A stretch of 64,000 nucleotides of DNA from Acidimicrobiia bacterium. GTDB lineage: Bacteria > Actinomycetota > Acidimicrobiia > Acidimicrobiales > Bin134. Position numbers and translations under genes: made by a program. The notes beneath the pieces are model-generated. The model did not search any database, was not told where the DNA came from, and saw nothing but the letters and a program-made list of their open reading frames with translations. This document shows, piece by piece, positions 44,631 to 60,548 of the stretch; within the stretch, counting starts at the first letter, position 1; each line of letters opens with the position of its first letter. Where the stretch lies: positions 3,722-67,721 of the forward strand of contig JAJEGM010000053.1 of the NCBI GenBank assembly GCA_022819825.1, given 5' to 3'.

Positions 44631-44958
44631 TGTCGTTGACTTAGATCTGGGGGCACCTGAGGGACGAGAAGCTGGGTTTCGGCATCCCGCAGTTGTGGTG
44701 ACCGCCCAGCGAGTGCTTGATGCTGGGCCGAGTATTGTCCAGGTGGTTCCGCTTACGACAGTCCTTCGAAAGTTTGCATCAGAGGTGGAGTTTGAAGCCG
44801 ATTTCGAGAATGGGCTGGACCATGCGTCAGCCGCCCAGTGTCAGCACATCCGCGCCGTTGCTGCTAGCCGCATCGAAAACACTAGGGGCAATGTCGGCGG
44901 TACAGTGCTCAACCAGGTCCGGGAAGTGCTCGGCATCATCCTAGATCTGCCCGGGTAG
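44614..44958 (+). CDS. mazF: MazF/PemK family endoribonuclease toxin
   Basis: GDVVDLDLGAPEGREAGFRHPAVVVT...IVQVVPLTT...QCQHIRAVAASRI fits the MazF/PemK pattern. Start at ATG 44614. Confidence 0.78.
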   Translation: MLTSGDVVDLDLGAPEGREAGFRHPAVVVTAQRVLDAGPSIVQVVPLTTVLRKFASEVEFEADFENGLDHASAAQCQHIRAVAASRIENTRGNVGGTVLNQVREVLGIILDLPG

Positions 44959-46596: not shown

Positions 46597-48213
46597 TCAA
46601 AATGCGTTGGTGGGGAGGGGGTCGATGGCCAGCTCAATGACTGCGGGGCGGTCTTCGGCAATCATGTCCCGGATTGCGTGACGGAGGCCAGCTTCATCGG
46701 TTACGCGGGTGGCGGCGCAGCCGAATGATTCGGCATATTTCACCAGATCGGGATTGCGCAACTCGGTGCCGAGGAGCCTGCCGCCGTAGTTGAGCTCTTG
46801 GTCGAGGCGGGTGTTGCCGTAGCCGCTGTCGTTGACCACGATGTGGAGGGAGCCGATGTCGTATTGGACGGCGGTGGCCAGCTCGTTGCTGGCGAACAGG
46901 AAGCCTCCGTCGCCGCTGATTGACACGGCTGGGCGCTCGGGGGCGGCCAGCTTGGCGCCGAGGGTCATGTTCATGGCGAAGCCGAGGGTGCCCATGTACG
47001 AGGAAGTGAGATAGGAGCGCGGGTGCGCCACCGGCAGGTACATGTGGCACATGTAGCCCACCATGGTGGCGTCAACGGCCAGCACTGCGTCTTCGGGCAG
47101 GCTGTTGCTCAGGGCTTCGACGATTGCGGCTTGGGGACCGGCAGCGCGGTGGGCGGCATCGACCTGTCGGCGAGCCTCCTGCCACTCGCCGGAGCGGTCG
47201 GGGCTCGGATCGCTGATCTGGCGCAGCGCGCCGAGCAGGTCGGTTGCCCCGGCTTCGGCGTCGCCCACCAGGGCCACCTCGGGCCGGGTGAATCGGCCGA
47301 TCTCCGCGGGATCGACGTCGAGATGAATCAGTCGGCTGCTTTCGCCTAGCCCGACGCCCTGGAGACGGGTTCCCACGGCGAGCACCACATCAGCACTGGC
47401 GATGACCGGCGCGAGTCGCTCGTGGACGAACATGGCGCCGATTGCCGCTGGATTGCGGCCGTCGATCACGCCCTTGCCCTCGCGAGTGGAAATGGTCGCC
47501 GCTTGGAGGTGATGTTGCAGATCGCGCAGGACCTGTGCTGCACCATGGGCCCCACCGCCCACCACGATCAGGGGATGGTGTGCTTTGGCCAACAGCCTGG
47601 CGGCTTGCGAGACGAGATCGGGGTTTGGCCTCAGCGGCTCGCTGGCCACCGGGTCAATCACCGGGGCAGCAGTAGGCTCCCCCATGGTTTCGGGTGGGAT
47701 CTCGAGGTGGGCCGGGCGGGGACGGCCGCTGGTCATAACCGCGAAGGCCCGTCGAACAGCGGCGGGAAGTTGATCGGCGTCGGTGACTCGCTCAGCGTGC
47801 TTGGTGATCGGCCGGATTACGTCGAGCTGATCGTGTACCTCGTGGGGAAGGCTGTTACCGCGGCCGATCGCATCGCGGTTGATCTGTCCCGAAATCTGGA
47901 AGACCGGTGACGACGCGGCGTACGCCGTCGCCAAGCCCGCCCCCGCGTTGTACACGCCGGGGCCGGGCACGATCAGGGTTGTGCCCGGTTGTCCGCTCAC
48001 TCGGGCATAGCCATCGGCCATGTAGGCGGTGGCCTGTTCATGGCGGGCGGTGATGTAGCGGATCTTGTCGGCGCCGAGGTGGAACGAGTCGAGGATGGGC
48101 ATGAGCTGCACTCCGGGGATGCCGAACACCACCTCGACGCCTTCGCGCGCAAGCTGCCCGACGACCGCCGATCCGCCCGATCGTGTCGGCTGGGCCTCAA
48201 TTCGCTCGGTCAT
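46597..48213 (-). CDS. Thiamine-diphosphate-dependent enzyme (acetolactate synthase / benzoylformate decarboxylase-like)
   Basis: N-terminal VEVVFGIPGVQ...RHEQATAYMADGYAR and the ThDP motif GDGGFLFASNELATAVQYDIGSLHIVVNDSGYGN. Confidence 0.85.
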   Translation of the reverse strand: MTERIEAQPTRSGGSAVVGQLAREGVEVVFGIPGVQLMPILDSFHLGADKIRYITARHEQATAYMADGYARVSGQPGTTLIVPGPGVYNAGAGLATAYAASSPVFQISGQINRDAIGRGNSLPHEVHDQLDVIRPITKHAERVTDADQLPAAVRRAFAVMTSGRPRPAHLEIPPETMGEPTAAPVIDPVASEPLRPNPDLVSQAARLLAKAHHPLIVVGGGAHGAAQVLRDLQHHLQAATISTREGKGVIDGRNPAAIGAMFVHERLAPVIASADVVLAVGTRLQGVGLGESSRLIHLDVDPAEIGRFTRPEVALVGDAEAGATDLLGALRQISDPSPDRSGEWQEARRQVDAAHRAAGPQAAIVEALSNSLPEDAVLAVDATMVGYMCHMYLPVAHPRSYLTSSYMGTLGFAMNMTLGAKLAAPERPAVSISGDGGFLFASNELATAVQYDIGSLHIVVNDSGYGNTRLDQELNYGGRLLGTELRNPDLVKYAESFGCAATRVTDEAGLRHAIRDMIAEDRPAVIELAIDPLPTNAF

Positions 48214-48329
48214 AGTGCCTTCACCCTTACCGTTCCCGTGGCAGCGGCAACATAGCGCGTCTTTGCGACATCGCTTCCAGTTCCATCCGCTTTGCTGGAC
48301 TTCTCTGGTCTCGTACCGTAGGGTAGCGA

Positions 48330-48364
48330 TTGCGATATTCGCACAGATAGTGCAATAAACGCAC
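48330..48364. promoter_or_regulatory. Tandem 15-bp operator-like sites (KTGCR-N5-CRCAY) upstream of the ABC operon
   Basis: TTGCGATATTCGCAC (48330-48344) and GTGCAATAAACGCAC (48350-48364), 20 bp start to start. The second ends 16 nt before the SBP ATG. The same architecture recurs at 57834-57868. Confidence 0.6.
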
Positions 48365-48379
48365 AGAGGGAGGATTCTT

Positions 48380-49807
48380 ATGCCAAGTAGTAACAGCGAC
48401 CGTCAGCGTTCACCTGGGCGCCTTTGGCGCATTCTCGCAGTAGTCTTCGTTCTTGCCCTCGTCGCGGCCGGATGCGGCAATGACGACGATTCGAGTGGTG
48501 TGACCGATCCAACCCCGGAGGTGGCCAGCGGCGGTGCTGACGACAGTTCGGGCGACGCCTCGCCTGAGCCGGCGGATGATTCGGAGGAGGGGACCGCTGA
48601 TGCCCCGGCACCCGCCCCGACACCAGAGCTCTCTGGAACGATCGGCTTCATCAAGGGGCCGCATTCGGCGATGGAGGTCGAGTTCAACGAGCAGATCATT
48701 GCCGATTTCAATTCACAGGTCGCGCCCGACGTCAATGTCGAGTTCTCAACCTATGACTGGCCGGTACACGTCGCTGAGCTGACAACTCTGTTTGCCAGCG
48801 GTTCGCCGCCAGACGTCCAATATCTCGTCGATCTCATTTATCCGGCATTTGCAGAGCAAGGTGTTTTGCACGATATGACGGACTTTGTCAACGATCCGGA
48901 GTGGGCCGACGAGCGGGCCGACATCAGTCCCTTCGCCTGGGATCTGGCCGAGCAGCAAGGCGGCACGTGGGGTGTGCCCGTGCTCGGTGCTGTATACAAC
49001 ATCTTCATCAACGAAACCCTTCTGGAGGAGGCAGGCTTGCTTGACAGCTGGGATGACTCCTACGAGTCGATGCTTGCCGCGGCCGAGGAACTGACAACCG
49101 ATGATGTGTTCGGCTTTGCGGCGCGAACTTCGGCCGCCGACTTCGCCTGGTGGGATTGGTACCCCTACATCCACAATGCAGGCGGCGACGTGTTGTCCGA
49201 CGATTGGACTGAGTGCGGGTTGGTCGGCCAGGACGTGGTCGACGCCATGCAGTTCCTGATCGACATCCACACGGCTGGTGTCACCCCAGCAATCGGTTCG
49301 CTGGACAACCAGGGCCTGTTCGACCTGTTCGCCGCGGGGCGTGTGGCGATTTTGCATCATGAGACGCCGAACATCGTGTCGCTGAATGAGAACCCGCCGG
49401 GCTTCGAGTGGACGGTCGCGGCTGCACCCCCCGGGCCGCAGGGCCACACGGTGATGGGGAACTTCGGAATCTTGAGCATCGCAGAGGCCAGCAACAACAA
49501 GGACGCGGCATGGGAGTTCATCAAGCACTGGGCATCTGCTCCGCAGGTTGGAAGATTCGCGGAGCAGGTGAACCTGCAAGTTGTCCGCACCGACATCATC
49601 GGCGACCTGTTTGCCGAGAACCCGGCAATGAAGACCGTGCAATCCGAGCTTGTACCTCGTGTCCAAGGGCTTCAGCCGCATCCCCAAATCCTCGAAGCGC
49701 TGCAAGCCGCGTGGCCAGTGGCTGAGGATGCGTTCCGCGGAAACCTGACTGGCGAAGAAGCCATCGCTGGGATGTGTGCCGCGATCGACGGCGTGCTCGC
49801 CGGGTAG
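48380..49807 (+). CDS. ABC transporter substrate-binding lipoprotein (sugar/CUT1 type)
   Basis: Signal peptide with lipobox LVAAGCG, a Ser/Asp/Pro-rich tether, and a family-1 SBP body. GAGGGAGG Shine-Dalgarno. Confidence 0.88.
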   Translation: MPSSNSDRQRSPGRLWRILAVVFVLALVAAGCGNDDDSSGVTDPTPEVASGGADDSSGDASPEPADDSEEGTADAPAPAPTPELSGTIGFIKGPHSAMEVEFNEQIIADFNSQVAPDVNVEFSTYDWPVHVAELTTLFASGSPPDVQYLVDLIYPAFAEQGVLHDMTDFVNDPEWADERADISPFAWDLAEQQGGTWGVPVLGAVYNIFINETLLEEAGLLDSWDDSYESMLAAAEELTTDDVFGFAARTSAADFAWWDWYPYIHNAGGDVLSDDWTECGLVGQDVVDAMQFLIDIHTAGVTPAIGSLDNQGLFDLFAAGRVAILHHETPNIVSLNENPPGFEWTVAAAPPGPQGHTVMGNFGILSIAEASNNKDAAWEFIKHWASAPQVGRFAEQVNLQVVRTDIIGDLFAENPAMKTVQSELVPRVQGLQPHPQILEALQAAWPVAEDAFRGNLTGEEAIAGMCAAIDGVLAG

Positions 49808-49904
49808 CGGAAGGGCAGAAACCACGTTCGCATCAGGCCGCTGCGGCCTCCAGGACTTTCCCCTCCCCTCGGAGGCCATTGCAGCGGCCACTTGCGAACC
49901 CTTC

Positions 49905-49954
49905 AGGAGTTCTGGCGTCCCAGGCAGGTGGGATTTGGGGCGCCAGAACCTCCT
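49905..49954 (+). other. Intercistronic extended stem-loop between SBP and permease genes
   Basis: AGGAGTTCTGGCG (49905-49917) pairs with CGCCAGAACCTCCT (49941-49954) with one bulge. Inner TCCCA/TGGGA helix. A second hairpin AGGCCG-CTG-CGGCCT lies at 49835-49849. Confidence 0.5.
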
Positions 49955-50012
49955 TTCTTCGGGAGCGTTGCTTGGCTTTGGCTAACTACAATGCGAGGGG
50001 AGGCAGCACGCG

Positions 50013-50951
50013 ATGACTGATGTCGACACCGGCTTGAGCAGCACGCAGCTGACCCTTTCCCCCGAGGAGCACCGCCGGCTGCGGAGACGATACCGACGGC
50101 GTACAACGCTCACCGCCTACGCCTTCTTGGGACCGAATCTGCTGGCGTTTATCGCGTTTCTCCTCATTCCAGTTGTGTGGCTTTTCGTGTCCACGTTCAG
50201 GACTGGAGGCGTGCTTGGTCCTGCTGAGTTCGTTGGCCTCGACAACTGGCGAGACACGTTCGCTGACCCGTTGGCCAGAACAAGCATCCGCAACACGGTG
50301 GTCTACAGCGCGATGGCGATCCCGGCCGTGTTCATCATCGCCATGGTCTTGGCATTGGCATTACGCACGATTTCCCGCGGCAGTGCTCCGATCCGCGTTG
50401 CCCTGTACTTGCCGACACTCCAACCAGCCGTAGTGGCTGCATTCATCTTTGCGTTCGTGCTGCATCCCGACTTCGGGGTGATCAACTATGCCATTCGGGG
50501 GCTTGGCGGCGACCCGATCAACTTCCTGGGCGACACGTCGCTCGCGCTCCCCACGATTGCCGGGATCGAGGTGTGGCGGGGGACCGGGTTCTGGACGATG
50601 ATGTTCCTCGCTGGTTTGACAGCTCTGCCCAGCGAGCTCTACCACGCCGCGGAGATCGACGGGGCCGGAGCGATACGGCGGTTCCTGCGGCTGACGCTTC
50701 CCTTGCTGCGGCCGACCTTCTACTTCGCGGTCATTTTTGCGACGATCGTCAACCTCCAGCTCTTCGACTCCGTTTTCGCGCTCACCGATGGAGGTCCGGT
50801 CAACAGCACGATCTCGGTGTCGCTCTACATCTACCGGAGTCTGTTCTTGTTCGGCGATATCGGTTTCGGCGCGACGCTGTCCTTCCTGCTGGTCATCACT
50901 GTTCTGGTCCTCACCGGGCTTCAGACGTTCCTGCTGCGAGACCGCAAGTGA
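50013..50951 (+). CDS. Carbohydrate ABC transporter permease (MalF-like)
   Basis: Multiple TM segments and the EAA-type loop AEIDGAGAIRRFLRLTLPLLRP. Confidence 0.9.
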   Translation: MTDVDTGLSSTQLTLSPEEHRRLRRRYRRRTTLTAYAFLGPNLLAFIAFLLIPVVWLFVSTFRTGGVLGPAEFVGLDNWRDTFADPLARTSIRNTVVYSAMAIPAVFIIAMVLALALRTISRGSAPIRVALYLPTLQPAVVAAFIFAFVLHPDFGVINYAIRGLGGDPINFLGDTSLALPTIAGIEVWRGTGFWTMMFLAGLTALPSELYHAAEIDGAGAIRRFLRLTLPLLRPTFYFAVIFATIVNLQLFDSVFALTDGGPVNSTISVSLYIYRSLFLFGDIGFGATLSFLLVITVLVLTGLQTFLLRDRK

Positions 50952-50953
50952 CG

Positions 50954-51844
50954 ATGCCAGGGACTTACGAGGACGAGACACGCGAGGTGGAATCCTCCGG
51001 TAGTGCGGCTCGCTCTGGGCTGCCAGCGTCGCGACCGGCGATCGCGTTGTCATACGTGATTCTGCTCGTTGGGGTGGCGATCGCGCTCGTGCCGTTCTTG
51101 TATGTCGTGTCCACCTCGTTGAAGGAAACGACGTCGCTGTTCAGCTACCCACCAGACTGGATCCCGTCGCCGATCTATTGGGGCAACTTCGAATCGCTGT
51201 TCGCAGACCACCCGTTCGTGTGGTGGACCTTCAACACGCTCTTCGTCGCGGGCGCGGTGACCGTGTTGAAGCTTTGGTTCGACACTATGGCGGGCTACGC
51301 GTTGGCGAAGATGGAGTTCACGGGCAGGCGCGGTGTCGCGCTGCTGTTCCTGCTGTCGGTGGCGATTCCCATTTCGGCGTTGATCATCCCGCTGTTCTTT
51401 GTGGTCCGCTATCTCGGGCTCTTGAACACCTATTGGGCTCTGATTCTGCCGCCGCTGGCGAACCCCCTCGGCATTTTCATGGCTCGCAGTTTCATCGTCG
51501 GGATCCCCGACAACCTGGAGGACTCAGCTCGCCTTGACGGCGCTTCTGAGTTCACCATCTACCGCAAAATCGTCTTGCCGCTGATCCGCCCTGGACTGGT
51601 GGTGTTGGGGATGTTCACGTTCATGTTGCAGTACACGTCGTTCATCTGGCCCCTCATCGCAGTGCAGGACTCCGAGCGGCAGGTGCTAGCAGTCGGCATC
51701 TCTGGCCTCCAGAGCGCGTTCTTGCAGGACTGGGGTCTGCTCTCGGCAGCCATGTTGGCGGCCGCCATCCCCATCACACTTGTGTTCCTGCTGGTTCAGA
51801 AGGCATTCGTGGTCAACGATCTCTCCGGCGCACTCAAGGAATAG
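50954..51844 (+). CDS. Carbohydrate ABC transporter permease (MalG-like)
   Basis: EAA-type loop DSARLDGASEFTIYRKIVLPLIRP. Start at ATG 50954, 2 nt after the preceding stop (ORF track opens at 50573 inside the previous gene). Confidence 0.9.
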   Translation: MPGTYEDETREVESSGSAARSGLPASRPAIALSYVILLVGVAIALVPFLYVVSTSLKETTSLFSYPPDWIPSPIYWGNFESLFADHPFVWWTFNTLFVAGAVTVLKLWFDTMAGYALAKMEFTGRRGVALLFLLSVAIPISALIIPLFFVVRYLGLLNTYWALILPPLANPLGIFMARSFIVGIPDNLEDSARLDGASEFTIYRKIVLPLIRPGLVVLGMFTFMLQYTSFIWPLIAVQDSERQVLAVGISGLQSAFLQDWGLLSAAMLAAAIPITLVFLLVQKAFVVNDLSGALKE

Positions 51845-51850
51845 GAAGAA

Positions 51851-52975
51851 ATGCCCGCCTTGTCATCCCCGTCCGACATCGCCGTGAGCCTCATCCAAGT
51901 CGCGAAGTCCTACGGTGCCGTCGAGGTGCTACAGCCATTCGACTTACAGGTCGCCGAAGGCGAATTCGTTGTCCTCCTGGGCCCCTCCGGGTGCGGCAAG
52001 AGCACGATCCTGAAGATGATCGCAGGCCTTGAGGAAGCCAGCCACGGCGAGATCCACGTCGCGGGCGAACTCGTCAACTACGTCAGGCCCCGATACCGCA
52101 ACGTAGCTATGGTCTTCCAGAACTACGCGCTGTATCCCCACATGACGGTACGAGAGAACATCGCGTTTCCGCTCAAAATGAGCCGGCAGCCCCGACTCAG
52201 GCGCGCGGTCATCGAAGAGCGCACCGCCGAGGCAGCCGACATCGTTGACTTGACGCCGTACCTTGACCGAAAACCCGCGCAGTTGAGCGGCGGGCAGCGG
52301 CAGCGGGTTGCCCTGGCTCGAGCGATTGTCCGCCAACCAGCAGTGTTTCTCATGGACGAGCCGCTCTCCAACCTCGACGCGTTGCTGCGCGCTGACATGC
52401 GGACGAGCCTCTTGGATGTGCATGCCCGCATAAAGAAGGCGACGTTGTACGTCACCCACGACCAGATCGAGGCCATGACGATGGCCGATCGGGTAGTGGT
52501 CATCAACGCGGGCCGGATCCAGCAGATTGGACAGCCCCACGAGCTGTACACCGCCCCAGCGAACACGTTTGTGGCTCAGTTCATCGGGAGTCCGCGCATG
52601 CCACTCCACTCGCTGACGGTGAGCGACGATGGCGCTCTTCGGATCGCTGACGCGACCCTCGCTCTCGACGCTGCCGTCGTCTTGGAGCCGGAGGCCACGG
52701 TCACCGTGGGCCTGCGGCCCAGCGCGCTGCGAGCGACGGACTCGGTGTCAGCGTGCTTCTTCGGAGAGGCGAGACGACGCGACTACCTCGGCAGCGACAG
52801 CTACCTGGAGGTCGACCTCGGAGACGGCGCATCGGCGATGGTGCGTGCCGAGGCTGATACCGATGTGCGGCCTGGCGACAAGGTTCACGTCGACGCTGCT
52901 CCCGGCGCGATCCACGTCTTCGATGAGGCCGGGGTGCGGATCTGTGGTGCTTCGGTGGGCCAGCGAGAGCGATGA
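51851..52975 (+). CDS. ABC transporter ATP-binding protein (MalK/UgpC-like)
   Basis: Walker A GPSGCGKST, signature LSGGQRQRVALARA, Walker B FLMDEPLSNLD, and a C-terminal regulatory domain. Confidence 0.93.
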   Translation: MPALSSPSDIAVSLIQVAKSYGAVEVLQPFDLQVAEGEFVVLLGPSGCGKSTILKMIAGLEEASHGEIHVAGELVNYVRPRYRNVAMVFQNYALYPHMTVRENIAFPLKMSRQPRLRRAVIEERTAEAADIVDLTPYLDRKPAQLSGGQRQRVALARAIVRQPAVFLMDEPLSNLDALLRADMRTSLLDVHARIKKATLYVTHDQIEAMTMADRVVVINAGRIQQIGQPHELYTAPANTFVAQFIGSPRMPLHSLTVSDDGALRIADATLALDAAVVLEPEATVTVGLRPSALRATDSVSACFFGEARRRDYLGSDSYLEVDLGDGASAMVRAEADTDVRPGDKVHVDAAPGAIHVFDEAGVRICGASVGQRER

Positions 52976-53907
52976 GCAGCGCATCGGTGGTCATCGCGGA
53001 AGGTGTGAGTGCTCCGGAGGGTCCTACTCTCGGGCCGGGCGGCTGGATACTGAATGTTTGCAGCTTCAGCCGCGACAGCAACCCGAAGGTTTCTGGCGGT
53101 GACATCGTGGCGACGCACCCCGATCGCCCGGGCGACACGCGGCGGCTGTTCAACACCTCGGGAGGCGGCGTGGAGGGGATACCCGCGGCGCTGGCATTCG
53201 GACCCGACGGCTGTCTCTACATCACCGACGAGGGGCACCGGGCGATCCTGCGGGCGACCGATCAAGGAGCGCTGTCGGTGCATATGCGATCACCGAACGG
53301 GCCGAACGACCTCAGTTTCGATCGCGAGGGCAATCTCTGGTTCACCGATCCGTGGGGTTCGGATCTCGACAACGCCATCGGCGGGGTATATGTCCTGTAT
53401 GCGGGAACGGCGATTCCCGAACAGGTCGCATCTGGTTTGGCGTTTCCAAATGGGATCGTGGCCACGCCAGAGGAGCTGGTGTACGCGGAGACGCGCACGA
53501 GCCGCTTGTGGCACCACCGGCGATTTGCCGAAGGGCAACTAGGCGGAGCGGAGCTCTTCGCGGAGCTGCCTCCTCAGACTGGCGTTGAGGTGCAAGGCCC
53601 TGACGGTATAGCGCGTGATGGGCGCGGCAACCTGTACGTGGCCCACTACGGCTCTGGGTGTGTCCGCGTGTTTGCGCCTGACGGCACCCAACTCGATCCG
53701 ATTGCGGTGCCGGGTCGCGACCCAACCAACCTGTGCTTCGGGGGGCCGGAGATGAACATGCTGTTCGTGACGCTCGACGACACCGATCAGCTCATCGCGC
53801 AGCGGGTGCCCTGCCAAGGAGCCACGATCCAGTTCTGCCCATCGGCAAGCGAACCACCCTCATATGAGCACTGGCTGCACTTGATCGAGAACAGTCCCGC
53901 GGTGTGA
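52972..53907 (+). CDS. SMP-30/gluconolactonase/LRE family protein
   Basis: 311 aa with a beta-propeller-like repeat pattern (PEGP..., GPNDLSFDREGNLWFTD, PNGI, PDGIARDGRGNLYVA, NLCFGG). ATGA overlap with the ATPase gene. Confidence 0.75.
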   Translation: MSSASVVIAEGVSAPEGPTLGPGGWILNVCSFSRDSNPKVSGGDIVATHPDRPGDTRRLFNTSGGGVEGIPAALAFGPDGCLYITDEGHRAILRATDQGALSVHMRSPNGPNDLSFDREGNLWFTDPWGSDLDNAIGGVYVLYAGTAIPEQVASGLAFPNGIVATPEELVYAETRTSRLWHHRRFAEGQLGGAELFAELPPQTGVEVQGPDGIARDGRGNLYVAHYGSGCVRVFAPDGTQLDPIAVPGRDPTNLCFGGPEMNMLFVTLDDTDQLIAQRVPCQGATIQFCPSASEPPSYEHWLHLIENSPAV

Positions 53908-53939
53908 CCAAGCGTGGATAGAGAGAGCATCGGTTTGAA

Positions 53940-54707
53940 TCACACCTCGTTGCTGTGGGGGCTGTTGCCGTTCCACCCGAATTCCCGGGAGATGCCGAAG
54001 CTGGCCTCGAAGAGCTGCGGCACCATGGAAAGCAGGGTGTCGTAGTCGCAGGACAGAGTCGTGGTGGTGATCGAGACCGATCCGATGACCTGACCGGATG
54101 CCTCGAATACCGGCGCGGCGATGCAGTTGACCCACGGCTCGTGCTCGAGATGGTCGATCGCGTAGCCGCGCTCAATAGTGGCCCGAAGGTCTGAGAGATA
54201 CTCGTCGGTGCTCGTGATGGTGTTCTCGGTGTGGGCGACGTAGTCGATGGTCGACGCAATGCGCTCTTGGTCCTCGGGCGGAAGAAACGCAACGATGGCT
54301 TTGGCGACGCCTGTGCAGTGGAGTGGTGCTGTGTTGCCGATACGGGAGTACATGCGGACGGTCTGTTTCGCTTCGCGCTTGTCGATATAGACAACGGTGT
54401 CGCCTTCGAGCATGGCGAGATGGATCGTATGCTCGACATCATGGCTGAGGTCGGTGAGAAACGGTGCAGCGACCGAGCGGAGATCGATGTTCTCCAACGC
54501 CGCATTGGCAAGGCTGATAACACGGCGACCGAGGCGGAACACGTTGTGGCTGTCTCGTACCACCATCTGCTCGGCCTCGAGCACTTGGAGTGTCCGCAAG
54601 GCAGTGCTGCGATGGGTCCCCATAAACGAAGCGATCTGTTCGATCGACGATGGCCTCTCGGCGATCTGGCCCAGTACTTGGATGGCTCGTTGCACGGTCT
54701 GGCTCAT
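53940..54707 (-). CDS. IclR family transcriptional regulator
   Basis: N-terminal wHTH VQRAIQVLGQIAERPSSIEQIASFMGTHRSTALRTLQVLE plus a C-terminal IclR effector domain. 255 aa. Confidence 0.88.
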   Translation of the reverse strand: MSQTVQRAIQVLGQIAERPSSIEQIASFMGTHRSTALRTLQVLEAEQMVVRDSHNVFRLGRRVISLANAALENIDLRSVAAPFLTDLSHDVEHTIHLAMLEGDTVVYIDKREAKQTVRMYSRIGNTAPLHCTGVAKAIVAFLPPEDQERIASTIDYVAHTENTITSTDEYLSDLRATIERGYAIDHLEHEPWVNCIAAPVFEASGQVIGSVSITTTTLSCDYDTLLSMVPQLFEASFGISREFGWNGNSPHSNEV

Positions 54708-54793
54708 CGCGCCTCCGCTAGATTATAGGGGTTGGATGCCGGGCGAGGGGGCGGCTCGGGTTGGCCGGGGTATTGGGAGAGCAACGTTTCGGG

Positions 54794-56020
54794 TTAGAAC
54801 TCGGTTGAGATCACAGCGACGACCGTTCCATTGTCATCTACTTCGGGAATGTGCTTCCACTTGTCGAACGTTGTACACGGGTGGCTGATCCCTAGCGAGA
54901 TGAAATCGCCGACGGCTACCGCATCCTCGGCTTCGACGATCAAATAAGCGTGTTGGTCCATGAGGTTGGAGACTCGCCAGGAGTCAGGGGCGGGGGTGCG
55001 TCGAGTCTGCTCGTATCGCCACAGGGGCACCGGGAGTCCCTGGTCGAAAGACACGTCCCTCTTCCCGAGATCAAGCAGTGCAAGTGTTGGCTCAGGGCGT
55101 GAAATGACCTGGGCGATAGCTTCGAGCGCCGGTCGGAACGGGGCCAGTTCGGCATGGTCTCGGAGCGGGGAAATCTCGTTGTAGAACCCGCTGTCGTGGG
55201 TGACGTAGCAGCCGCTGCGCAGAACGAGCTCGCCATGGTGGGCATCGGCCACCGGGCCACAGATGTCGACAACATCGTCGAAACAGGCACTTCCACCCGC
55301 AGTGAGGATCGGGGGAGTGTCCGGGTCGTAAAGTCCGAGGGCGGCGATCCGCTCGAACGCATGGGCGAGAAGCCGCAGATAGTCCTGCACATGACGGCGG
55401 TCAGCATGATCGTGGGCGGAGAGGAACACGCCCTCGTACCCGGCGACCCCGGCAAACCGCACCGTCTCCAGAGCCCTTGCCTCCTCTGCCAGCGCAATCG
55501 CCTCGCCGATGTCGCGCACGCCGCCTCGCCCGCCTCGATCACCGATTTCTACGAGAACTGATACGTGCCCAGCGCTGTTGCGATTGAGTCGAGAGAGGCC
55601 GGTGTGCGAGTCGACGAAGCAATAGAGATCGAGGCCGCGGGTTGAGGCTTCGAGGGCCCAGTCGATAGCAGGCTCATTGACGAGTTGGTTGGCGATGAGC
55701 AGTCGGTGTACGCCGAGGTCGAAAAGGGTCCGCGCTTGGACAGCGTTGGCGATGGTGATCCCCCATGCGCCGTACGCGATCTGGCGGGAGATCAGGCTGG
55801 GAGCCATGGTGGTCTTGCCATGCGGCGCCAGTTCGACCCGGTTTGCGAGGCAGAATTCGCGCATCGTTGCAAGGTTGTGTTCAATCGCGGTGGTGCGGGC
55901 AATGATGAGAGGGGACAAAAACGTTCCATCGAAGACGTTGCGACCGATCAAGGCATCTGTCGCTGCCCCGACTAGGTCGGTGGGGATCGCCTTGGAGCTG
56001 GGTCGAAGCTGCTCTGTCAT
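54794..56020 (-). CDS. Fold-type III PLP enzyme of the D-serine dehydratase-like / D-threonine aldolase (DSD1) family
   Basis: Alanine-racemase-N-type domain with PLP lysine context LAPHGKTTMAP. C-terminal ISLGISHPCTTFDKW (HxC metal motif typical of DSD1-type enzymes). Confidence 0.72.
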   Translation of the reverse strand: MTEQLRPSSKAIPTDLVGAATDALIGRNVFDGTFLSPLIIARTTAIEHNLATMREFCLANRVELAPHGKTTMAPSLISRQIAYGAWGITIANAVQARTLFDLGVHRLLIANQLVNEPAIDWALEASTRGLDLYCFVDSHTGLSRLNRNSAGHVSVLVEIGDRGGRGGVRDIGEAIALAEEARALETVRFAGVAGYEGVFLSAHDHADRRHVQDYLRLLAHAFERIAALGLYDPDTPPILTAGGSACFDDVVDICGPVADAHHGELVLRSGCYVTHDSGFYNEISPLRDHAELAPFRPALEAIAQVISRPEPTLALLDLGKRDVSFDQGLPVPLWRYEQTRRTPAPDSWRVSNLMDQHAYLIVEAEDAVAVGDFISLGISHPCTTFDKWKHIPEVDDNGTVVAVISTEF

Positions 56021-56090
56021 CGTGGGGATTCCGACTCAATGGTGGGGAACCCGGTGCTTGTACTCGATCGAAGCAGCCCTTTAGTCATCA

Positions 56091-56747
56091 TCACTGGGAT
56101 TCCCGTCTCTCGGTGAGCCATCTTCTCAGCAAGTCGACACCCTTGGGCTGGACAAGCTCGGTGCCGAGTCCAATCCCAAGGGCACCTGCGTCAAGGTACT
56201 GCTCGATCTCTGCGATGGTCACGCCACCGGTAGGGACGAACGAAACATCGGGAAAGGGCCCCGACATGGCCGCGAGGAAGCGGGTTCCTCCGACCTCCCG
56301 GGCAGGAAACAGCTTCAGCTCCGAGACACCGTGGGCCTGCGCCAGCTGAATTTCGGTGGGTGTCGCCACTGCCGGCAGGTAGGGGATGCCCGACTCTTTG
56401 GCCTGGTCTACGAGTTCAATATCAAGGCCGGGAGAGATGGCAAATGCAGCACCGAGGTCGATGACTCGATGGAGGTTGGCAACTGAGGTGACGCTGCCTG
56501 CGCCCAAGGGCCGGTTGTTTTCAGCCGCGATCTCGGCGACGAGCTCGAGCGTCCGGAGTCCGTCGTCATCTTGCACGGTGACCTCGATGAGGTCGATTCC
56601 GACGTCCCACAACGCTTGGGCGGTGGTCGCCGCAGCTGCGGGTGGGAGTCCTCGTAGAATCGCGATGATCGGGCAGCGGCGGAGGTGGGCCTGAAAGTAC
56701 GACACCGCAATTGTGGTGCTCTGGTGTGCTTCAGTGGCTCGCCTCAT
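56091..56747 (-). CDS. eda: KDPG / 4-hydroxy-2-oxoglutarate aldolase
   Basis: PIIAILRG, LIEVT, GAGSV, ISPG, Schiff-base lysine context LKLFPA, and PTGGV. Confidence 0.85.
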   Translation of the reverse strand: MRRATEAHQSTTIAVSYFQAHLRRCPIIAILRGLPPAAAATTAQALWDVGIDLIEVTVQDDDGLRTLELVAEIAAENNRPLGAGSVTSVANLHRVIDLGAAFAISPGLDIELVDQAKESGIPYLPAVATPTEIQLAQAHGVSELKLFPAREVGGTRFLAAMSGPFPDVSFVPTGGVTIAEIEQYLDAGALGIGLGTELVQPKGVDLLRRWLTERRESQ

Positions 56748-57781
56748 GTGGGTGCGCTCGGGGGCAGTCCCGGCGGCCGCTGGGTGTTGCCGCTGATGTC
56801 GGTTAGGACCAGGTTTGCTGAGAGCCAGTCCTCGGGTGATAAGTCGAGCAGGCGTTCTATCGTGGCGTCATCGGCAATGGGGCCCACGTCGCTGTGCTGG
56901 GAAAGTGCGCTCATGGCTGTGATGTGCCCGAGCCGTAGGGCGGCTTCGATGTTGGCGTCGTATCGGAGCACCCCGACGATGAATCCGGCTGCAAACGCAT
57001 CCCCGGCGCCGATCGGCTCGACGACGGTGCCGTTGAGCGCGGGAACGAAGTGTGTTCGGCCGCGTCGGTCGGCATAAGCGCCGTTGTCGGCGTCCTTGAT
57101 GACAACTGTCTTGGGTCGGGGAAGCAGGGTGCGGACATCGGCGGCTGTGGTGGCACCCCAGAGGTCATCGGCTTCATCAAGTCCAACGAAGACGATGTCG
57201 CATCGGTTTGCAGCCTCCCGCAGCGCTTTCGGGGGATCTCCTCGCTCCCAGATTGAAGGGCGCCAGTTGATGTCAAAGGACACGAGCGCCGACCGGGATG
57301 GATCTCCGATCAGGGATCGGACAAGTTCGTTGCAGGAGTTGGACAAACCCAGGGTGATCCCAGTCAGATGGAGGACTCTCGGCCTCTGGCTGAGCTCGGG
57401 CCTGGTCGGCGGCCCCATTGCTGCTGCTGCGGAGCCGGCCCGGTAGTAGCGGACTCGCCGCTCGTCAGCGGTGACCTCCTTGAGCATGAGCCCGGTCTGG
57501 CGATCGGAAAGCCGGCGTACCCCGCTTACGTCGACGCCTGCGCTCTCGATGGTCGAGAGCACGAGGTCTCCAGCCAGGTCAGCGCCGAGCTGGCTGACCC
57601 ACGCGGCTTGCATACCGAGAGCTGCGCAGTAGCGCGCAACGTTGGACTCCGCGCCGCTTACTTCCCATTCGAAGGCCGCTCGGTTCGGGTGGGGCCGTAT
57701 GGTCAGCATTGACTCCCCCAAGGCAACAATGTCTGGGAAGGGTCTGCGGTCGCTCGGCTCGTCGGCCGAGTGGTTCATCAT
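56744..57781 (-). CDS. kdgK: PfkB family sugar kinase, 2-dehydro-3-deoxygluconokinase-like
   Basis: PfkB C-terminal motif EPIGAGDAFAAGFIVG. 4-bp overlap with eda. Confidence 0.78.
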   Translation of the reverse strand: MMNHSADEPSDRRPFPDIVALGESMLTIRPHPNRAAFEWEVSGAESNVARYCAALGMQAAWVSQLGADLAGDLVLSTIESAGVDVSGVRRLSDRQTGLMLKEVTADERRVRYYRAGSAAAAMGPPTRPELSQRPRVLHLTGITLGLSNSCNELVRSLIGDPSRSALVSFDINWRPSIWERGDPPKALREAANRCDIVFVGLDEADDLWGATTAADVRTLLPRPKTVVIKDADNGAYADRRGRTHFVPALNGTVVEPIGAGDAFAAGFIVGVLRYDANIEAALRLGHITAMSALSQHSDVGPIADDATIERLLDLSPEDWLSANLVLTDISGNTQRPPGLPPSAPT

Positions 57782-57833
57782 GCGCTCCTAGGGGTGGCGG
57801 TACTCGTGTGGACTCCCCTGATGCTAGCCTGAA

Positions 57834-57868
57834 GTGCAATAATCACATAAAGAGTGCAGATAACGCAC
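57834..57868. promoter_or_regulatory. Tandem 15-bp operator-like sites in the divergent kdgK / D-aminoacylase promoter region
   Basis: GTGCAATAATCACAT (57834-57848) and GTGCAGATAACGCAC (57854-57868), 20 bp apart. The second ends 19 nt before the GTG start at 57888. Matches the sites at 48330-48364. Confidence 0.6.
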
Positions 57869-57887
57869 ATATTGGGAGGGTGGTGAC

Positions 57888-59342
57888 GTGTACGACTTCG
57901 CCATTCGAGGAGCACTCATTGAGGACGGCTCCGGAGGGCAATCGTTTGAGGGAGACATCGCCGTCGATGGCGGTCACATCGCTGCGGTGGGATCAGTGGG
58001 TGCGTCGCGGGCCGAGGTCGATGCCGAGGGGCTGGTCGCCGCCCCCGGCTTCGTTGACGCGCACACCCACGACGACATGGAACTCCATTGCAACCCCGAC
58101 AACGGATCGAAGATCAAGCAGGGTGTAACGACGGTCATCTGCGGCAGCTGCGGATTCAGTGCGTTCCCTCATGCGCCTGGGCGGCCTTCGCCAGACTTCT
58201 TGTCGGTCGATGGCTGGTGGCGGACATACCAGGAGTACCAGGAAGTGCTGACCGATCATGGCATCGGCACAAACTCAGCTTCCTTCGTCGGCCACAACAC
58301 CGTTCAGCGGCTTCTCCTGGGGGCCGATAGCGCCGAACCTAGTGCTCGGGCCCTCGCGGCCGTGTGCGACGACATCCGGAGGGCGATGGACTACGGAGCG
58401 TTGGGCGTGTCCACGGGCCTCATCTACCGTCCTGGTCGGCACACGTCAACGGCAGCGCTGACACGAATCGTTGCGACCGTGTCCGACTACGGCGGCATAC
58501 ACAGCACACACCTGCGCGACGAATCAGACGGCCTTCTCAATGCCATTGCCGAAGTCGCCTCCGTGTCTCGAGAAACCGGCGCATCGCTCCAGATCTCTCA
58601 TCTCAAGGTCATCGGAGAGCACAATTGGGGCAGCCTCAGCGCCGCACTCGACCAGATTGACAGGATCCGAGCCGACGGGATCGACATCGCCTTCGATGTG
58701 TACCCCTACACCGCAGGGTCAGGGCCATTGGCGACCTATTTCCCTCCCGACGACATCGACGTGACCAGGGCTCGATTAGTCCAGATCATTCGGTGTCCCG
58801 ACTACCCCCACTTTGAAGGGTGGCGGCTCGCCGACATCGCGCGCGAGGAGGGCCTCTCACTGCGCAGTGTCACCCACCGTCTCGTCACAGCCCCGAATGC
58901 CGACAAGACGCTGTGTGTCATCTTCGAGATTCACGAAGACGACATGCTGGAGGCGCTGTCGCATCCAGCGGCGATGGTCGGAAGCGACGGGATACCCCAG
59001 CAGACAGGAGTGCCTCATCCGCGTTTGCAAGGCACGTTCCCCCGGGTTCTCGGCCACTTCAGCAGAGACAAGGGGGTGTTTTCGCAAAGCGCGGCGATCC
59101 AGAAGATGACATCCATGCCGGCGACTCGGTACGGGCTTCGTGGCCGCGGCCTACTACGGCCCGGCTATGCGGCCGACATTGTCGTATTCGACCCGACCAC
59201 GATTGCGGACTGCGGAACTTATTCCTCACGTGCCGATCCAGTGGGCGTTCGTCACGTTTTCGTCAACGGGAAACAAGCGCTGTCAAACGCTGCCCTTACC
59301 GGTGTTCGAGCAGGCCGGGTTCTGACACGCGAGGAACGCTGA
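57888..59342 (+). CDS. N-acyl-D-amino-acid deacylase (D-aminoacylase) family amidohydrolase
   Basis: MYDFAIRGALIEDGSG...DIAVDGGHIAAVG...APGFVDAHTHDD is the characteristic D-aminoacylase N-terminus. 484 aa, GTG start. Confidence 0.82.
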   Translation: MYDFAIRGALIEDGSGGQSFEGDIAVDGGHIAAVGSVGASRAEVDAEGLVAAPGFVDAHTHDDMELHCNPDNGSKIKQGVTTVICGSCGFSAFPHAPGRPSPDFLSVDGWWRTYQEYQEVLTDHGIGTNSASFVGHNTVQRLLLGADSAEPSARALAAVCDDIRRAMDYGALGVSTGLIYRPGRHTSTAALTRIVATVSDYGGIHSTHLRDESDGLLNAIAEVASVSRETGASLQISHLKVIGEHNWGSLSAALDQIDRIRADGIDIAFDVYPYTAGSGPLATYFPPDDIDVTRARLVQIIRCPDYPHFEGWRLADIAREEGLSLRSVTHRLVTAPNADKTLCVIFEIHEDDMLEALSHPAAMVGSDGIPQQTGVPHPRLQGTFPRVLGHFSRDKGVFSQSAAIQKMTSMPATRYGLRGRGLLRPGYAADIVVFDPTTIADCGTYSSRADPVGVRHVFVNGKQALSNAALTGVRAGRVLTREER

Positions 59343-59413
59343 GTCCAGGGGCTCCGTATGAGGTTGAGACCCAGAGGTCTGCCAGGTCTGGCCCGCCAAA
59401 GAAAGGATTGACA

Positions 59414-59806
59414 ATGATTAGTCGACACGCTGTAGCCAGCAGCGAAGTGCCGGAGGCCTCAGGCCCCTACTCAGCAGCAATCGTCTCGCGGGGGTTCGCA
59501 TTCCTGTCGGGTCAGGGGCCATACGACGCGGAGGGCACCCTTGCGGGTGAGGACATCGCAAGCCAGACACGACAAACACTCCAAAACTTGGAAGCCGTCG
59601 CACAAGCCAGCGGCGCCACTCTCCGAGAAGCTGTGCGGGTGTGTGTCTACCTGACTGACATGGCGAACTTCACCGCCATGAACGCTGTTTTCGCAGAGTT
59701 CTTCGAGCAGCCGTACCCAGCTCGAACGACGGTTCAAACTGGGCTTCCAAAGCCCGAGATGCTGGTTGAGATCGACGCGATCGTCGCACTGCCTGAACCG
59801 GCTTGA
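59414..59806 (+). CDS. ridA: RidA family (YjgF/L-PSP) enamine/imine deaminase
   Basis: PEASGPYSAAIVSRGFAFLSGQ..., VCVYLTDMANFTAMNAVFAEFF and PARTTVQ. Only the last 130 codons of ORF 58820..59806 look real. Confidence 0.85.
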   Translation: MISRHAVASSEVPEASGPYSAAIVSRGFAFLSGQGPYDAEGTLAGEDIASQTRQTLQNLEAVAQASGATLREAVRVCVYLTDMANFTAMNAVFAEFFEQPYPARTTVQTGLPKPEMLVEIDAIVALPEPA

Positions 59807-59876: not shown

Positions 59877-60125
59877 ATGAGAACGGTCATTACCATCCCA
59901 GACCAGATTCATGCTAAGGCCAAACAGCGCGCTGCGGAATTGGGGATCAGTTTTGCGGAGTTTGCCCGCCGCTTGTTCGAGAAGGAACTAGAGACCCCCA
60001 CTCCCCAAGGAGATATCGAAGCCATTTGCGGCATGGTCAGCGGCTCGCCATTTGATATGGCCCGCGATGGAAATGAGATCGCTGCGGAGGCAGCCCACTG
60101 GCTGAGTTCCGAAGAGTCCGGCTAG
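59877..60125 (+). CDS. Ribbon-helix-helix antitoxin (VapB-like)
   Basis: MRTVITIPDQIHAKAKQRAAELGISFAEFARRLFE. Lies 3 nt before the PIN toxin gene. Confidence 0.72.
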   Translation: MRTVITIPDQIHAKAKQRAAELGISFAEFARRLFEKELETPTPQGDIEAICGMVSGSPFDMARDGNEIAAEAAHWLSSEESG

Positions 60126-60128
60126 AGG

Positions 60129-60548
60129 ATGGAGTCCTCCTATGTGGACACCTCGGCATGGGTGGCGATGGCTGATGGTGCCGAGGTATCTCACAAAGCT
60201 GTAGCCGAGGCACTCCGCATCCGGCAGGGGTGCTTGGTCACCAGTGATCATGTACTTCACGAAACTTGGGCGGTAATGCGCTACCGGCACAACTTCTATA
60301 CAGCCGAAAAGCTCGTCAACACCATCCGAAACGGTATCGCCAGGATTGAAGTATCGGGTTTGGCCGACCTCGAAGCAGCCGCCGCTATTGGGGTTGCATT
60401 TGCCGACCAGGACTTTTCGCTTTCGGATCGCACAAGCTGGGCGATCATGGAACGACTTGGGATCCACTATGCGATCTCGCTCGATAATGATTTCCGCGTC
60501 TACCGATTCGGCCCCGGACGCCGCCAAGCATTCTCTGTCGCTCCGTGA
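60129..60548 (+). CDS. vapC: PIN-domain toxin VapC
   Basis: SYVDTSAWVAMAD..., SLSDRTSWAIMERLG and ISLDNDF. Confidence 0.8.
   Translation: MESSYVDTSAWVAMADGAEVSHKAVAEALRIRQGCLVTSDHVLHETWAVMRYRHNFYTAEKLVNTIRNGIARIEVSGLADLEAAAAIGVAFADQDFSLSDRTSWAIMERLGIHYAISLDNDFRVYRFGPGRRQAFSVAP

Follow-up and report, generated by a model that had tools for sequence, protein, structure and literature searches.

A putative IclR-controlled locus for the catabolism of an N-acetyl-hexosaminate in Acidimicrobiia

At positions 48380-59806 of a 64-kb stretch of Acidimicrobiia DNA (the window), open reading frames, Pfam and NCBIfam searches and the gene calls of the source scaffold delineate 11 genes in three transcription units. 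We consider it reasonably likely that these form a catabolic island under IclR control that acts on an N-acetyl-2-amino-2-deoxy-hexonate; the likeliest candidate is N-acetyl-D-glucosaminate (GlcNAc1A), the C1-oxidised monomer of chitin/GlcNAc, or its lactone. GlcNAc1A-type pathways have previously been described only in Gammaproteobacteria; here, such a pathway would operate with another transporter, regulator and deacetylase, on a substrate that we infer. The host is a marine actinobacterium, probably associated with sponges.

The first unit, on the forward strand, encodes a CUT1-type ABC importer and a lactonase. It comprises a lipoprotein substrate-binding protein (SBP, 48380-49807; Pfam SBP_bac_1/SBP_bac_8, N-terminal lipobox LVAAGC), a UgpA/MalF-like permease (50013-50951; Pfam, NCBIfam, scaffold gene call), a UgpE/MalG-like permease (50954-51844; start corrected to 50954 following the scaffold gene call), a UgpC/MalK-like ATPase with a TOBE_2 domain (51851-52975) and a β-propeller lactonase of the SGL/SMP-30/gluconolactonase family (52972-53907; Pfam SGL, 120 bits). 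The second unit, on the reverse strand, consists of a sugar kinase resembling 2-keto-3-deoxygluconate (KDG) kinases (PfkB, 56744-57778, end corrected to 57778; Pfam PfkB), a KDPG/KHG aldolase (Eda, 56091-56747; TIGR01182, 164.1 bits against a cut-off of 156.05), a fold-type III PLP enzyme (54794-56020; PF14031, lysine motif APHGKTT and an SHPC motif) and, as its final gene, an IclR regulator (53940-54707), for which the top NCBIfam model is KdgR. The third unit, again on the forward strand, contains a D-aminoacylase (Dam, 57888-59342; Amidohydro_3), which is a predicted N-acetyl-hexosaminate deacetylase, and a RidA enamine/imine deaminase (59414-59806; TIGR00004, 107.6 bits against a cut-off of 106.25). 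RidA is a 130-residue gene call with its start corrected to 59414; the long open reading frame begins earlier, at 58820. All genes named in the first-pass annotation were found in the order it gave, and its three transcription units are borne out by 4-nt overlaps of the lactonase start with the ATPase stop and of the Eda start with the PfkB stop. The ThDP gene (46597-48213), which it had suggested may belong to the same regulon, has no counterpart in the orthologous locus L001, and its membership is therefore not supported.

The closest known system is the ong cluster for GlcNAc1A catabolism in Pseudoalteromonas prydzensis ACAM 620 and other Gammaproteobacteria (Jiang et al. 2022, PMC9537276; Wang et al. 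2025, PMC12017989). Its experimentally proven set comprises the D-aminoacylase-like OngB, the fold-type III PLP enzyme OngC, the RidA homologue OngD, which is essential in the pathway, and KdgK; some clusters additionally have a KDPG aldolase (PMC9537276). In the corresponding pathway proposed here, each step of which we derive from homology and context, the lipoprotein SBP and the CUT1 transporter would import the compound, possibly as the neutral lactone, and the co-transcribed SMP-30-type lactonase would open it to the open-chain aldonate, the form bound by OngB. Dam would then remove the acetyl group, yielding D-glucosaminate, from which the OngC-like PLP enzyme would eliminate the C3 hydroxyl and the amino group, with RidA hydrolysing the enamine/imine to KDG and ammonia. 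Finally, PfkB would convert KDG to KDPG and Eda would cleave KDPG to pyruvate and glyceraldehyde-3-phosphate. This hexosaminate route (deacylation, PLP-dependent β-elimination with RidA, KdgK, Eda), already put forward in the first-pass annotation, is supported at the sequence level by the match to ong, the clade of the PLP enzyme, the common operon and operator, and a relative that combines GntP, lactonase and GH20 (L090, see below).

A common operator suggests that the three units constitute one regulon. The pattern TGCRNWWWNYRCA has four sites in the window (7 matches on both strands, 0.61 expected), all of them in two pairs confined to the two promoter regions of the locus; the background set had 37 sites across 1.85 Mb of unrelated loci. 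The first pair of 13-bp palindromes, TGCGATATTCGCA and TGCAATAAACGCA (48331-48363), is spaced 20 bp centre to centre and located 17 bp upstream of the SBP start; the second, TGCAATAATCACA and TGCAGATAACGCA (57835-57867), likewise 20 bp apart, lies in the divergent PfkB/Dam promoter region. Seven related loci (L001, L002, L088, L090, L091, L093, L095) keep the latter operator at the equivalent position, and the motif also precedes the SBP gene of L001, L093 and L095 and an SBP-permease-GH20 operon of L090. Every related locus has an IclR orthologue (45-88% identity). The palindromes are presumed to be IclR binding sites, through which the regulator would probably repress all three units.

The Dam-PLP-PfkB-IclR core is syntenic in more than nine loci from Acidimicrobiia, sponge metagenomes and Pseudonocardiaceae (L001, L002, L088, L090, L091-L095, L135). 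Fifteen pairs of PLP-enzyme and Dam matches agree in the length of their longest contig, and the same arrangement is seen in independent contigs whose proteins are 44-88% identical. RidA accompanies the core in all loci except L002, as does Eda where it is present; three close relatives have no Eda in the locus. The lactonase is kept in L001, L091-L093 and L095, and L002 has neither lactonase nor RidA in the locus. L135, from Gandjariella thermophila, consists of the enzyme core only; L090, from Amycolatopsis arida, additionally has a GntP permease, a lactonase, an ABC importer and a GH20 hexosaminidase, with the same operator before both operons. Transporters are exchanged among the loci, which feature two different CUT1 systems, an Opp/Dpp-type system, or GntP plus CUT1. 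The grouping of the genes goes beyond chance, since it recurs in independent contigs and the operator is confined, within the window, to the two promoter regions.

These findings bear on whether the locus might instead be two unrelated adjoining modules, one for D-amino-acid salvage (D-aminoacylase, D-Ser/D-Thr deaminase, RidA) and an ordinary KDG module fed by a sugar acid (ABC importer, lactonase, KdgK, Eda, KdgR-like IclR). OngC accepts D-serine and D-threonine for deamination as well (PMC9537276), a Klebsiella OngB-type enzyme has been treated solely as a D-acylase for producing D-amino acids (PMC12149444), and the best score of Dam is to a generic D-aminoacylase. We nevertheless regard this explanation as improbable: the PLP gene sits within the PfkB-Eda-PLP-IclR operon, the same operator pairs mark the Dam-RidA and transporter units, and the combination persists across 44-88% identity despite the exchange of transporters. 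Further, Pfam and NCBIfam show no aldonate/uronate dehydratase, isomerase or dehydrogenase in the locus as an alternative source of KDG, and the closest sister group of Dam, which has no PLP, KdgK or Eda neighbours, also lacks the clade-specific Glu347.

In the hexosaminate pathway, the PLP enzyme is predicted to be a hexosaminate ammonia-lyase forming KDG, consistent with its place in the OngC/3gwq clade. Its top solved relative is 3gwq (238 bits, 39% identity), which is itself 94-95% identical to a Paraburkholderia PLP enzyme whose gene adjoins an OngB-type Dam and RidA, and it is 36% identical over its full length to the deaminase of a Klebsiella ong-like cluster. It does not group with D-threonine aldolases, which score at most 80 bits.

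For Dam, the D-aminoacylase fold and catalytic residues of the proposed deacylase were confirmed, but not an OngB-type enzyme. Dam shares 35% identity with PpOngB and 39% with AfDam, scores 313 bits to the A. faecalis D-aminoacylase versus 273 to OngB, and belongs to a separate monophyletic clade with an AGSGP loop and Glu347 as hallmarks. All metal, catalytic, acetamido-binding and α-carboxylate-binding residues are conserved. However, five of the six OngB specificity residues are replaced (A193 by I179, A256 by I242, S290 by G277, S292 by G279, G348 by E347), and the sixth, Q298, sits in an unalignable loop that is six residues longer. Glu347 is present in 66 of 66 aligned members with at least 50% identity, a group that occurs in KDG context; in the sister group outside this context the position is non-acidic, mostly Ile/Val/Leu with some Thr/Ala. 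Given scores, residues and clade, orthology to OngB was rejected, and the specificity for N-acetyl-glucosaminate therefore follows from context only. Dam is predicted to act on N-acetyl-hexosaminate and would have been recruited from another D-aminoacylase subfamily than gammaproteobacterial OngB.

A pocket unlike that of OngB at each alignable specificity position, with a longer loop 2, is compatible with the same pathway logic acting on another 2-acylamino-2-deoxy-aldonate: N-acetyl-D-galactosaminate, a different N-acyl derivative, free D-glucosaminate from glucosamine oxidation, or an oxidised disaccharide (chitobionic acid) trimmed elsewhere. Oligosaccharides are common cargo of CUT1 transporters, and the kinase and aldolase of the Klebsiella ong-like cluster are annotated as KDGal-type, so such clusters may handle C4 epimers. 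The top NCBIfam models for PfkB are bifunctional KDG/KDGal kinases; its best PDB match is the Thermus KDG kinase 1v19 (118 bits). Eda, in contrast, passes the KDPG/KHG cut-off and misses the NCBIfam model for KDPGal aldolase (129 versus 207 bits), and the locus has no glycosidase to process an oligomer; chitinase, LPMO, GH20 and sugar oxidase genes are likewise absent from the window and from the examined flanks of L001, L002, L091, L093 and L095. The sole glycosidase-bearing relative, the actinomycete locus L090, provides the only link to GH20, an N-acetylhexosaminidase fitting GlcNAc- but also GalNAc-based substrates. We judge these other aldonates distinctly less likely than GlcNAc1A, though the most credible of the alternatives.

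The SBP has orthologues with 77-85% identity in the syntenic loci but only weak relatives in the PDB (65 bits). Because its alphaproteobacterial orthologues (59-64% identity) sit in unrelated contexts, one beside hydantoinase A/B and one beside an RpiR-like regulator only, the SBP gives no support for a particular ligand. In the former case (59% identity), the hydantoinase A/B-type ring-opening enzymes occupy the position of the lactonase, as might be expected if the imported compound were not an amino-sugar acid but another cyclic nitrogen-containing compound (lactam or lactone) that is ring-opened, with the KDG enzymes serving a different downstream product. This seems very improbable to us, as the hydantoinase context includes no other gene of the locus and the explanation accounts for neither the PfkB/Eda/PLP operon nor the GH20/GntP association in Amycolatopsis. 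The lactonase best matches the β-propeller lactonases/gluconolactonases 7ris and 8djf in the PDB (94 bits); we found no signal peptide in it, and it is predicted to be cytoplasmic. Between the SBP and the first permease, the forward strand has a structured intergenic region with two long hairpins (49808-50012; MFE −104.1 kcal/mol, z = −4.4 against shuffles).

The locus and ong agree in predicted chemistry and in enzyme folds: both encode a deacetylase with the D-aminoacylase fold, a PLP deaminase of fold type III from the 3gwq/OngC clade, RidA and a KDG kinase of the PfkB family. The KDPG aldolase has counterparts in the ong versions of Vibrio, Klebsiella and Serratia, and both clusters comprise several operons under a repressor, a putative one in the present case. 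They differ in transport (CUT1 ABC importer with lipoprotein SBP, versus TonB-dependent receptors and an SSS symporter), in the regulator (IclR versus RpiR), in the additional cytoplasmic lactonase, in the lack of the GH20 OngA from this window, in the deacetylase, which relative to OngB carries two insertions of 6 residues each and a single deletion of 5, and in the host (Acidimicrobiia versus Gammaproteobacteria). The notion of a distinct actinobacterial implementation thus stands for transporter, regulator and deacetylase, but not for the DSD1-type deaminase, because OngC itself is a fold-type III enzyme of that family.

The Pseudonocardiaceae loci of A. arida and G. thermophila, of which we found no description in the literature searched, have orthologues of IclR (45% identity), PLP enzyme (44%), PfkB (46%) and RidA (46%) and the same operator motif, and A. 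arida further encodes a lactonase and an ABC system of the CUT1 class. Their deacetylase, however, represents a third type of Amidohydro_3 protein, in which 59 residues are inserted and the bridging cysteine is missing, the lactonase is of another family (PF10282), Eda is absent from the locus, and A. arida has GntP and GH20 in addition.

The D-aminoacylases AfDam and BbDam (37-39% identity) share with Dam the fold, the Cys/His/His metal site, the catalytic Asp and the acetamido- and α-carboxylate-binding residues. In the pocket, I179, I242, G279 and E347 of Dam correspond to F, M, T and M in AfDam and to A, M, T and A in BbDam, which also has the specificity residue Arg295 in loop 2; this loop is longer in Dam, whose context is KDG enzymes rather than amino-acid metabolism.

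The Dga/DgaE system resembles the proposed pathway in that a PLP-dependent elimination turns a hexosaminate into a 2-keto-3-deoxy sugar acid, followed by aldolase cleavage. DgaE, whose described substrate is the 6-phosphate, probably has a different PLP fold, whereas the pathway proposed here has no PTS and would phosphorylate after deamination, not before.

The locus (48380-59806) is organised in three units. An ORF map, Pfam and NCBIfam scans, and the gene calls of the source scaffold (ENA ERZ23491381 scaffold_220, a 114.7-kb metagenome scaffold containing the window) recovered all genes listed in the first-pass annotation. Unit 1, on the forward strand, encodes a lipoprotein solute-binding protein (SBP, 48380-49807), two CUT1-type permeases (50013-50951 and 50954-51844), a UgpC/MalK-like ATPase (51851-52975) and an SMP-30/gluconolactonase-family protein with no signal peptide (52972-53907), the first 4 nt of whose gene overlap the end of the ATPase gene. 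Unit 2, on the reverse strand, consists of an IclR regulator with HTH_IclR and IclR_C domains (53940-54707), a PLP enzyme (54794-56020; PF14031, 68.9 bits), the aldolase Eda (56091-56747) and a PfkB kinase (56744-57778), the latter two overlapping by 4 nt. Unit 3, again on the forward strand, encodes an Amidohydro_3 D-aminoacylase (Dam, 57888-59342) and a RidA protein scoring above the TIGR00004 cut-off (59414-59806). The GC content of the locus is that of its surroundings. The SBP and first permease genes are separated by 205 nt (49808-50012, forward strand) that are predicted to fold into a pair of long hairpins (MFE -104 kcal/mol, z = -4.4), which may act as an mRNA stabiliser or as an attenuator setting the SBP:permease ratio.

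Eda scored 164.1 bits against TIGR01182, over the curated cut-off of 156.05, and 129 bits against the KDPGal aldolase model PRK09140, under its cut-off of 207. In NCBIfam and PDB comparisons the PfkB protein was nearest to KDG kinases, with a Thermus KDG kinase as its top PDB relative, and the lactonase was nearest to β-propeller (glucono)lactonases in the PDB.

The closest described pathway is that of Pseudoalteromonas prydzensis for N-acetyl-D-glucosaminate (GlcNAc1A). There, the D-aminoacylase-like OngB deacetylates GlcNAc1A, the fold-type III PLP enzyme OngC converts the resulting D-glucosaminate (GlcN1A) to KDG and ammonia, the RidA protein OngD is essential, and KdgK yields KDG-6-P; Vibrio, Klebsiella and Serratia clusters also carry a KDPG aldolase (Jiang et al., PMC9537276). 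In the 2022 survey of Jiang et al., complete GlcNAc1A pathways were confined to Gammaproteobacteria, plus one betaproteobacterium (PMC9537276), and our full-text literature searches found no description of GlcNAc1A catabolism outside Gammaproteobacteria.

The PLP enzyme of the window has the PF14031 fold-type III motifs APHGKTT, with the PLP lysine, and SHPC. In this family an alanine-racemase-like barrel at the N-terminus bears the PLP lysine, and a D-ser_dehydrat domain at the C-terminus bears an H-x-C motif. Its assignment to the OngC type rests on comparisons with two proteins, 3gwq and the deaminase of an ong-like Klebsiella cluster. The alternative that it is a D-threonine aldolase fared poorly, as the enzyme scored 238 bits against 3gwq (39% identity) and at most 80 bits against D-threonine aldolases and other relatives, in keeping with its first-pass reading as a glucosaminate deaminase. 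3gwq is a structural-genomics entry from Burkholderia, deposited as 'D-serine deaminase'. It is 94-95% identical to a Paraburkholderia PLP gene adjoining an OngB-type Dam and RidA (L060, L087, about 8.8 kb) and, judged by its sequence and this neighbourhood, is probably a glucosaminate deaminase orthologous to OngC. Fitness studies have reportedly assigned glucosaminate ammonia-lyase activity to DSD-like proteins, a point that forms no part of our argument.

The Klebsiella deaminase is 36% identical to the window enzyme over the full length, and the alignment matches their PLP-lysine and HPC motifs. Its cluster was retrieved in a tblastn search of plasmids, which returned no close relative, and was used as a reference. 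It lies on the K. pneumoniae plasmid NZ_OP378649.1 (L003, 8571-15835) and contains, besides the deaminase, RidA, an SSS symporter, RpiR and a 'D-acylase' crystallised as 9G5M, which has the OngB signature; the annotation assigns the kinase and aldolase of this cluster to the KDGal type (DgoK/DgoA-like). The 9G5M paper studied the Klebsiella enzyme for D-amino-acid production and does not mention GlcNAc1A (PMC12149444).

For the deacetylation step, OngB and the D-aminoacylases have in common the metal site, D368, Y194, K254, Y285, S291 and R379, whereas OngB owes its specificity for the polyol chain of GlcNAc1A to A193, A256, S290, S292 and Q298 together with a small residue at position 348 (PMC12017989). 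The sequences of P. prydzensis OngB and of the characterised D-aminoacylases AfDam and BbDam, which we reconstructed from PDB alignments, served as references in an alignment of the window Dam. The latter keeps all common residues (C88, H208, H238, Y180, K240, Y272, S278, D367, R379), and with them the Cys/His/His metal site, the catalytic Asp and the residues for the acetamido group and the α-carboxylate. At the OngB specificity positions it has I179, I242, G277, G279 and E347 instead and, since its loop 2 is longer by 6 residues, Q298 is without a clear counterpart. A further 6-residue insertion and a 5-residue deletion are also present. It does not conform to the AfDam/BbDam type either: the residues of the hydrophobic AfDam pocket, F191, M254, L298 and M346, correspond to Ile, Ile, an unalignable position and Glu, BbDam uses R295 for the γ-carboxylate, and the conserved Thr that follows the carboxylate-binding Ser in AfDam/BbDam-type enzymes is Gly279 in the window Dam. 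The earlier proposal that this D-aminoacylase is an N-acyl-glucosaminate deacylase finds no backing in the OngB-type specificity residues; the common residues fit OngB and D-aminoacylases alike.

The indels of the window Dam are common to all of its best 120 database matches, which form two groups. Among these 120, every member of group 1 (at least 50% identity to the window Dam) has Glu at position 347, while group 2 (42-47% identity) has non-acidic residues there, mostly Ile, Val or Leu and in some cases Thr or Ala. No PLP, KdgK or Eda neighbours were found at group 2 loci; their Dam gene immediately follows that of a GMC oxidoreductase, as in all three sister genes (L008 8391-9977, L009 8431-9975, L012 8503-9990), and is fused to it in P0230 (835 aa). 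This suggests a pair that oxidises and then deacylates an N-acyl amino alcohol or amino sugar. Group 2 hosts are marine Pseudomonadales and K189A-clade MAGs. As a background set only, we used 80 unrelated Dam loci, among the matches listed, with no group 1 genomes. Eleven of these 80 had a PLP neighbour, nine with the OngB signature and two AfDam-like; for four further OngB-signature loci of the 80, the flank that was retrieved contained no such neighbour.

In a neighbor-joining tree of 108 sequences with 25 bootstraps, the OngB-type clade and group 1 were each recovered in 25/25 replicates and groups 1 and 2 together in 24/25. The smallest clade with both OngB and group 1 comprised 86 of the 108 sequences, AfDam and BbDam included. 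A third type is represented by the amidohydrolase of Amycolatopsis, which has an insertion of 59 residues and no bridging cysteine. Given the separate clades, the differing signatures and this third type, it appears, at the sequence level, that different lineages recruited their enzyme for deacetylation independently. We accordingly infer the specificity of the window Dam from its context and from the context-correlated Glu347, and not from orthology to OngB.

The nearest named relatives of the locus are in Candidatus Poriferisocius and other Acidimicrobiia, and the nearest metagenomic loci carry the accessions MKWU01 and LXNI01, both Mediterranean sponge metagenomes (PMC5099237, PMC5649159). 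The Ca. Poriferisocius contig (L001) keeps the whole locus at 72-91% protein identity. Five metagenomic loci (L091-L095) are all syntenic, three of them (L091-L093) without Eda. L002 has Dam, PfkB, Eda, PLP and IclR at 53-84% identity together with another CUT1 system and is without lactonase and RidA; L088 has RidA-Dam, Eda-PLP, IclR and PfkB at 46-65% together with an Opp/Dpp-type ABC system. In addition, 15 pairs of PLP and Dam matches agreed in the length of the longest contig. Together, these loci and pairs indicate that the enzyme core is constant while the transporters are exchanged. In the examined flanks of L001, L002, L091, L093 and L095, and in the rest of the window, we saw no gene for a glycoside hydrolase, an LPMO or an oxidase.

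A 13-bp palindrome occurs in two copies 20 bp apart in the divergent PfkB/Dam region (57835-57867) and again upstream of the SBP gene (48331-48363). The pattern TGCRNWWWNYRCA has exactly four sites in the 64 kb, all within these two promoter regions; counted on both strands it gave 7 matches versus 0.61 expected, a number reached by no shuffle. As the pattern was built from the four window sites, its recurrence in other loci is an independent test. The motif recurs at equivalent promoters in L001, L002, L088, L090, L091, L093 and L095, compared with a background of 37 sites in 1.85 Mb of unrelated loci. With its IclR domains and with palindromes common to the predicted target promoters, the IclR protein is a good candidate for binding these putative operators.

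One of these loci, from Amycolatopsis arida (L090; 7655-20384, FOWW01000012.1), has RidA-IclR-PfkB divergent from PLP-amidohydrolase-GntP-lactonase, with an SBP-permease-permease-GH20 operon next to it and the operator motif upstream of both operons. Its lactonase belongs to PF10282, and its identity to the window proteins is 44% for PLP, 45% for IclR and 46% each for PfkB and RidA. It appears to encode an as yet undescribed route by which actinomycetes would use oxidised chito-oligosaccharides: such a route calls for a GH20 hexosaminidase, a permease of the gluconate family and a lactonase under common control, which argues for a GlcNAc-derived aldonate. This gene set, from one locus, is the strongest contextual argument for such a substrate. 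Gandjariella thermophila (L135) has the core only. In Pseudonocardiaceae, the RidA-IclR-PfkB/PLP-amidohydrolase core adjoins pheST and rplT.

The 1,5-lactone of GlcNAc1A is in equilibrium with the open-chain acid, and it is the open chain that OngB binds (PMC12017989). A cytoplasmic lactonase accompanying a neutral-sugar-type ABC importer fits this chemistry, and their co-transcription is a reasonable match to the pathway, with the lactone as the presumed transported species. The SBP itself matched the PDB only weakly, to mixed sugar binders, and its alphaproteobacterial orthologues (59-64% identity) lie next to an RpiR-like regulator only or to hydantoinase A/B; neither the PDB matches nor these contexts gave a pointer to its ligand. 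The SBP and ABC orthologues of Maritalea myrionectae (L133) and of an alphaproteobacterial MAG (L134), in which hydantoinase A/B follows where the window has the lactonase, are far closer than phylogenetic distance predicts; a transporter for small cyclic compounds may have moved horizontally between the lineages.

The ThDP enzyme gene (46597-48213, reverse strand) had been suggested as a member of the same regulon. It is divergent from the SBP gene and the two flank one intergenic region, the site of the putative SBP operators; its best NCBIfam match is PRK08266 with 536 bits, under the cut-off of 571. We rejected it as a locus member because the orthologous Ca. Poriferisocius contig has cobalamin genes at that place, and the gene probably lies outside the locus. 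A sulfatase gene (45024-46502, reverse strand) adjoins it, and a sulfotransferase-like gene is found farther upstream, near 10143-11384. Toxin-antitoxin genes lie on both sides of the locus (44527-44958 and 59877-60548), the upstream toxin being MazF/PemK-like and the downstream pair consisting of a small ORF and a PIN-domain (VapC-like) gene just after RidA (gene calls L004, L005). P450s, luciferase-like monooxygenases and CoA-transferases abound in the neighbourhood, which also has an F420-dependent enzyme with a fused epimerase-like domain.

Taken as a whole, the locus very probably encodes some route from an N-acyl-hexosaminate to KDPG, and, with more reserve, we regard it as more likely than not that its substrate is GlcNAc1A or the lactone of this acid. 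More tentatively still, and at somewhat less than even chances, Actinomycetota may have their own salvage regulon for oxidised chitin (GlcNAc-lactone/GlcNAc1A) around a conserved IclR-PfkB-PLP-RidA core. [quoted passage not shown]

GlcNAc1A is a product of LPMOs whose catabolism has so far been shown in Gammaproteobacteria only, and a version in Acidimicrobiia and Pseudonocardiaceae would add a second phylum, and sponge symbionts, to the users of chitin by the oxidative route. Chitin is a component of the skeleton in Aplysina-type sponges, which would provide an ecological rationale: if the reading is true, it would point to sponge-associated Acidimicrobiia that live on oxidised chitin, either from the skeleton of the host or from its food. 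The re-tuning of the D-aminoacylase fold for sugar acids would amount to a natural experiment, with Glu347 and a longer loop 2 set against Ser292 and Gln298 of OngB. The operator motif, the deacetylase residue signature and the proposed OngC-like assignment of 3gwq should also help to correct the annotation of similar loci, at present labelled 'D-aminoacylase' and 'amino acid deaminase'.

Of the further components of the ong cluster, the GH20 OngA, the SSS symporter OngIT, the TonB-dependent receptors and the RpiR regulator OngR were found neither in the locus nor in the examined ~59 kb (2.5-64 kb). The first-pass annotation had expected a distinct implementation with an ABC importer, a lactonase and a DSD1-type deaminase; importer and lactonase do set the locus apart, but the deaminase does not, as OngC is likewise a PLP enzyme of fold type III. 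Both systems use the same chemistry, with a PLP deaminase of the same clade and with RidA and KDG-kinase steps from the same families. Yet where the ong cluster relies on TonB-dependent receptors and an SSS symporter, the window locus has ABC uptake; it also has IclR, together with a defined putative operator, in place of RpiR, an added lactonase, and a deacetylase from a subfamily other than that of OngB.
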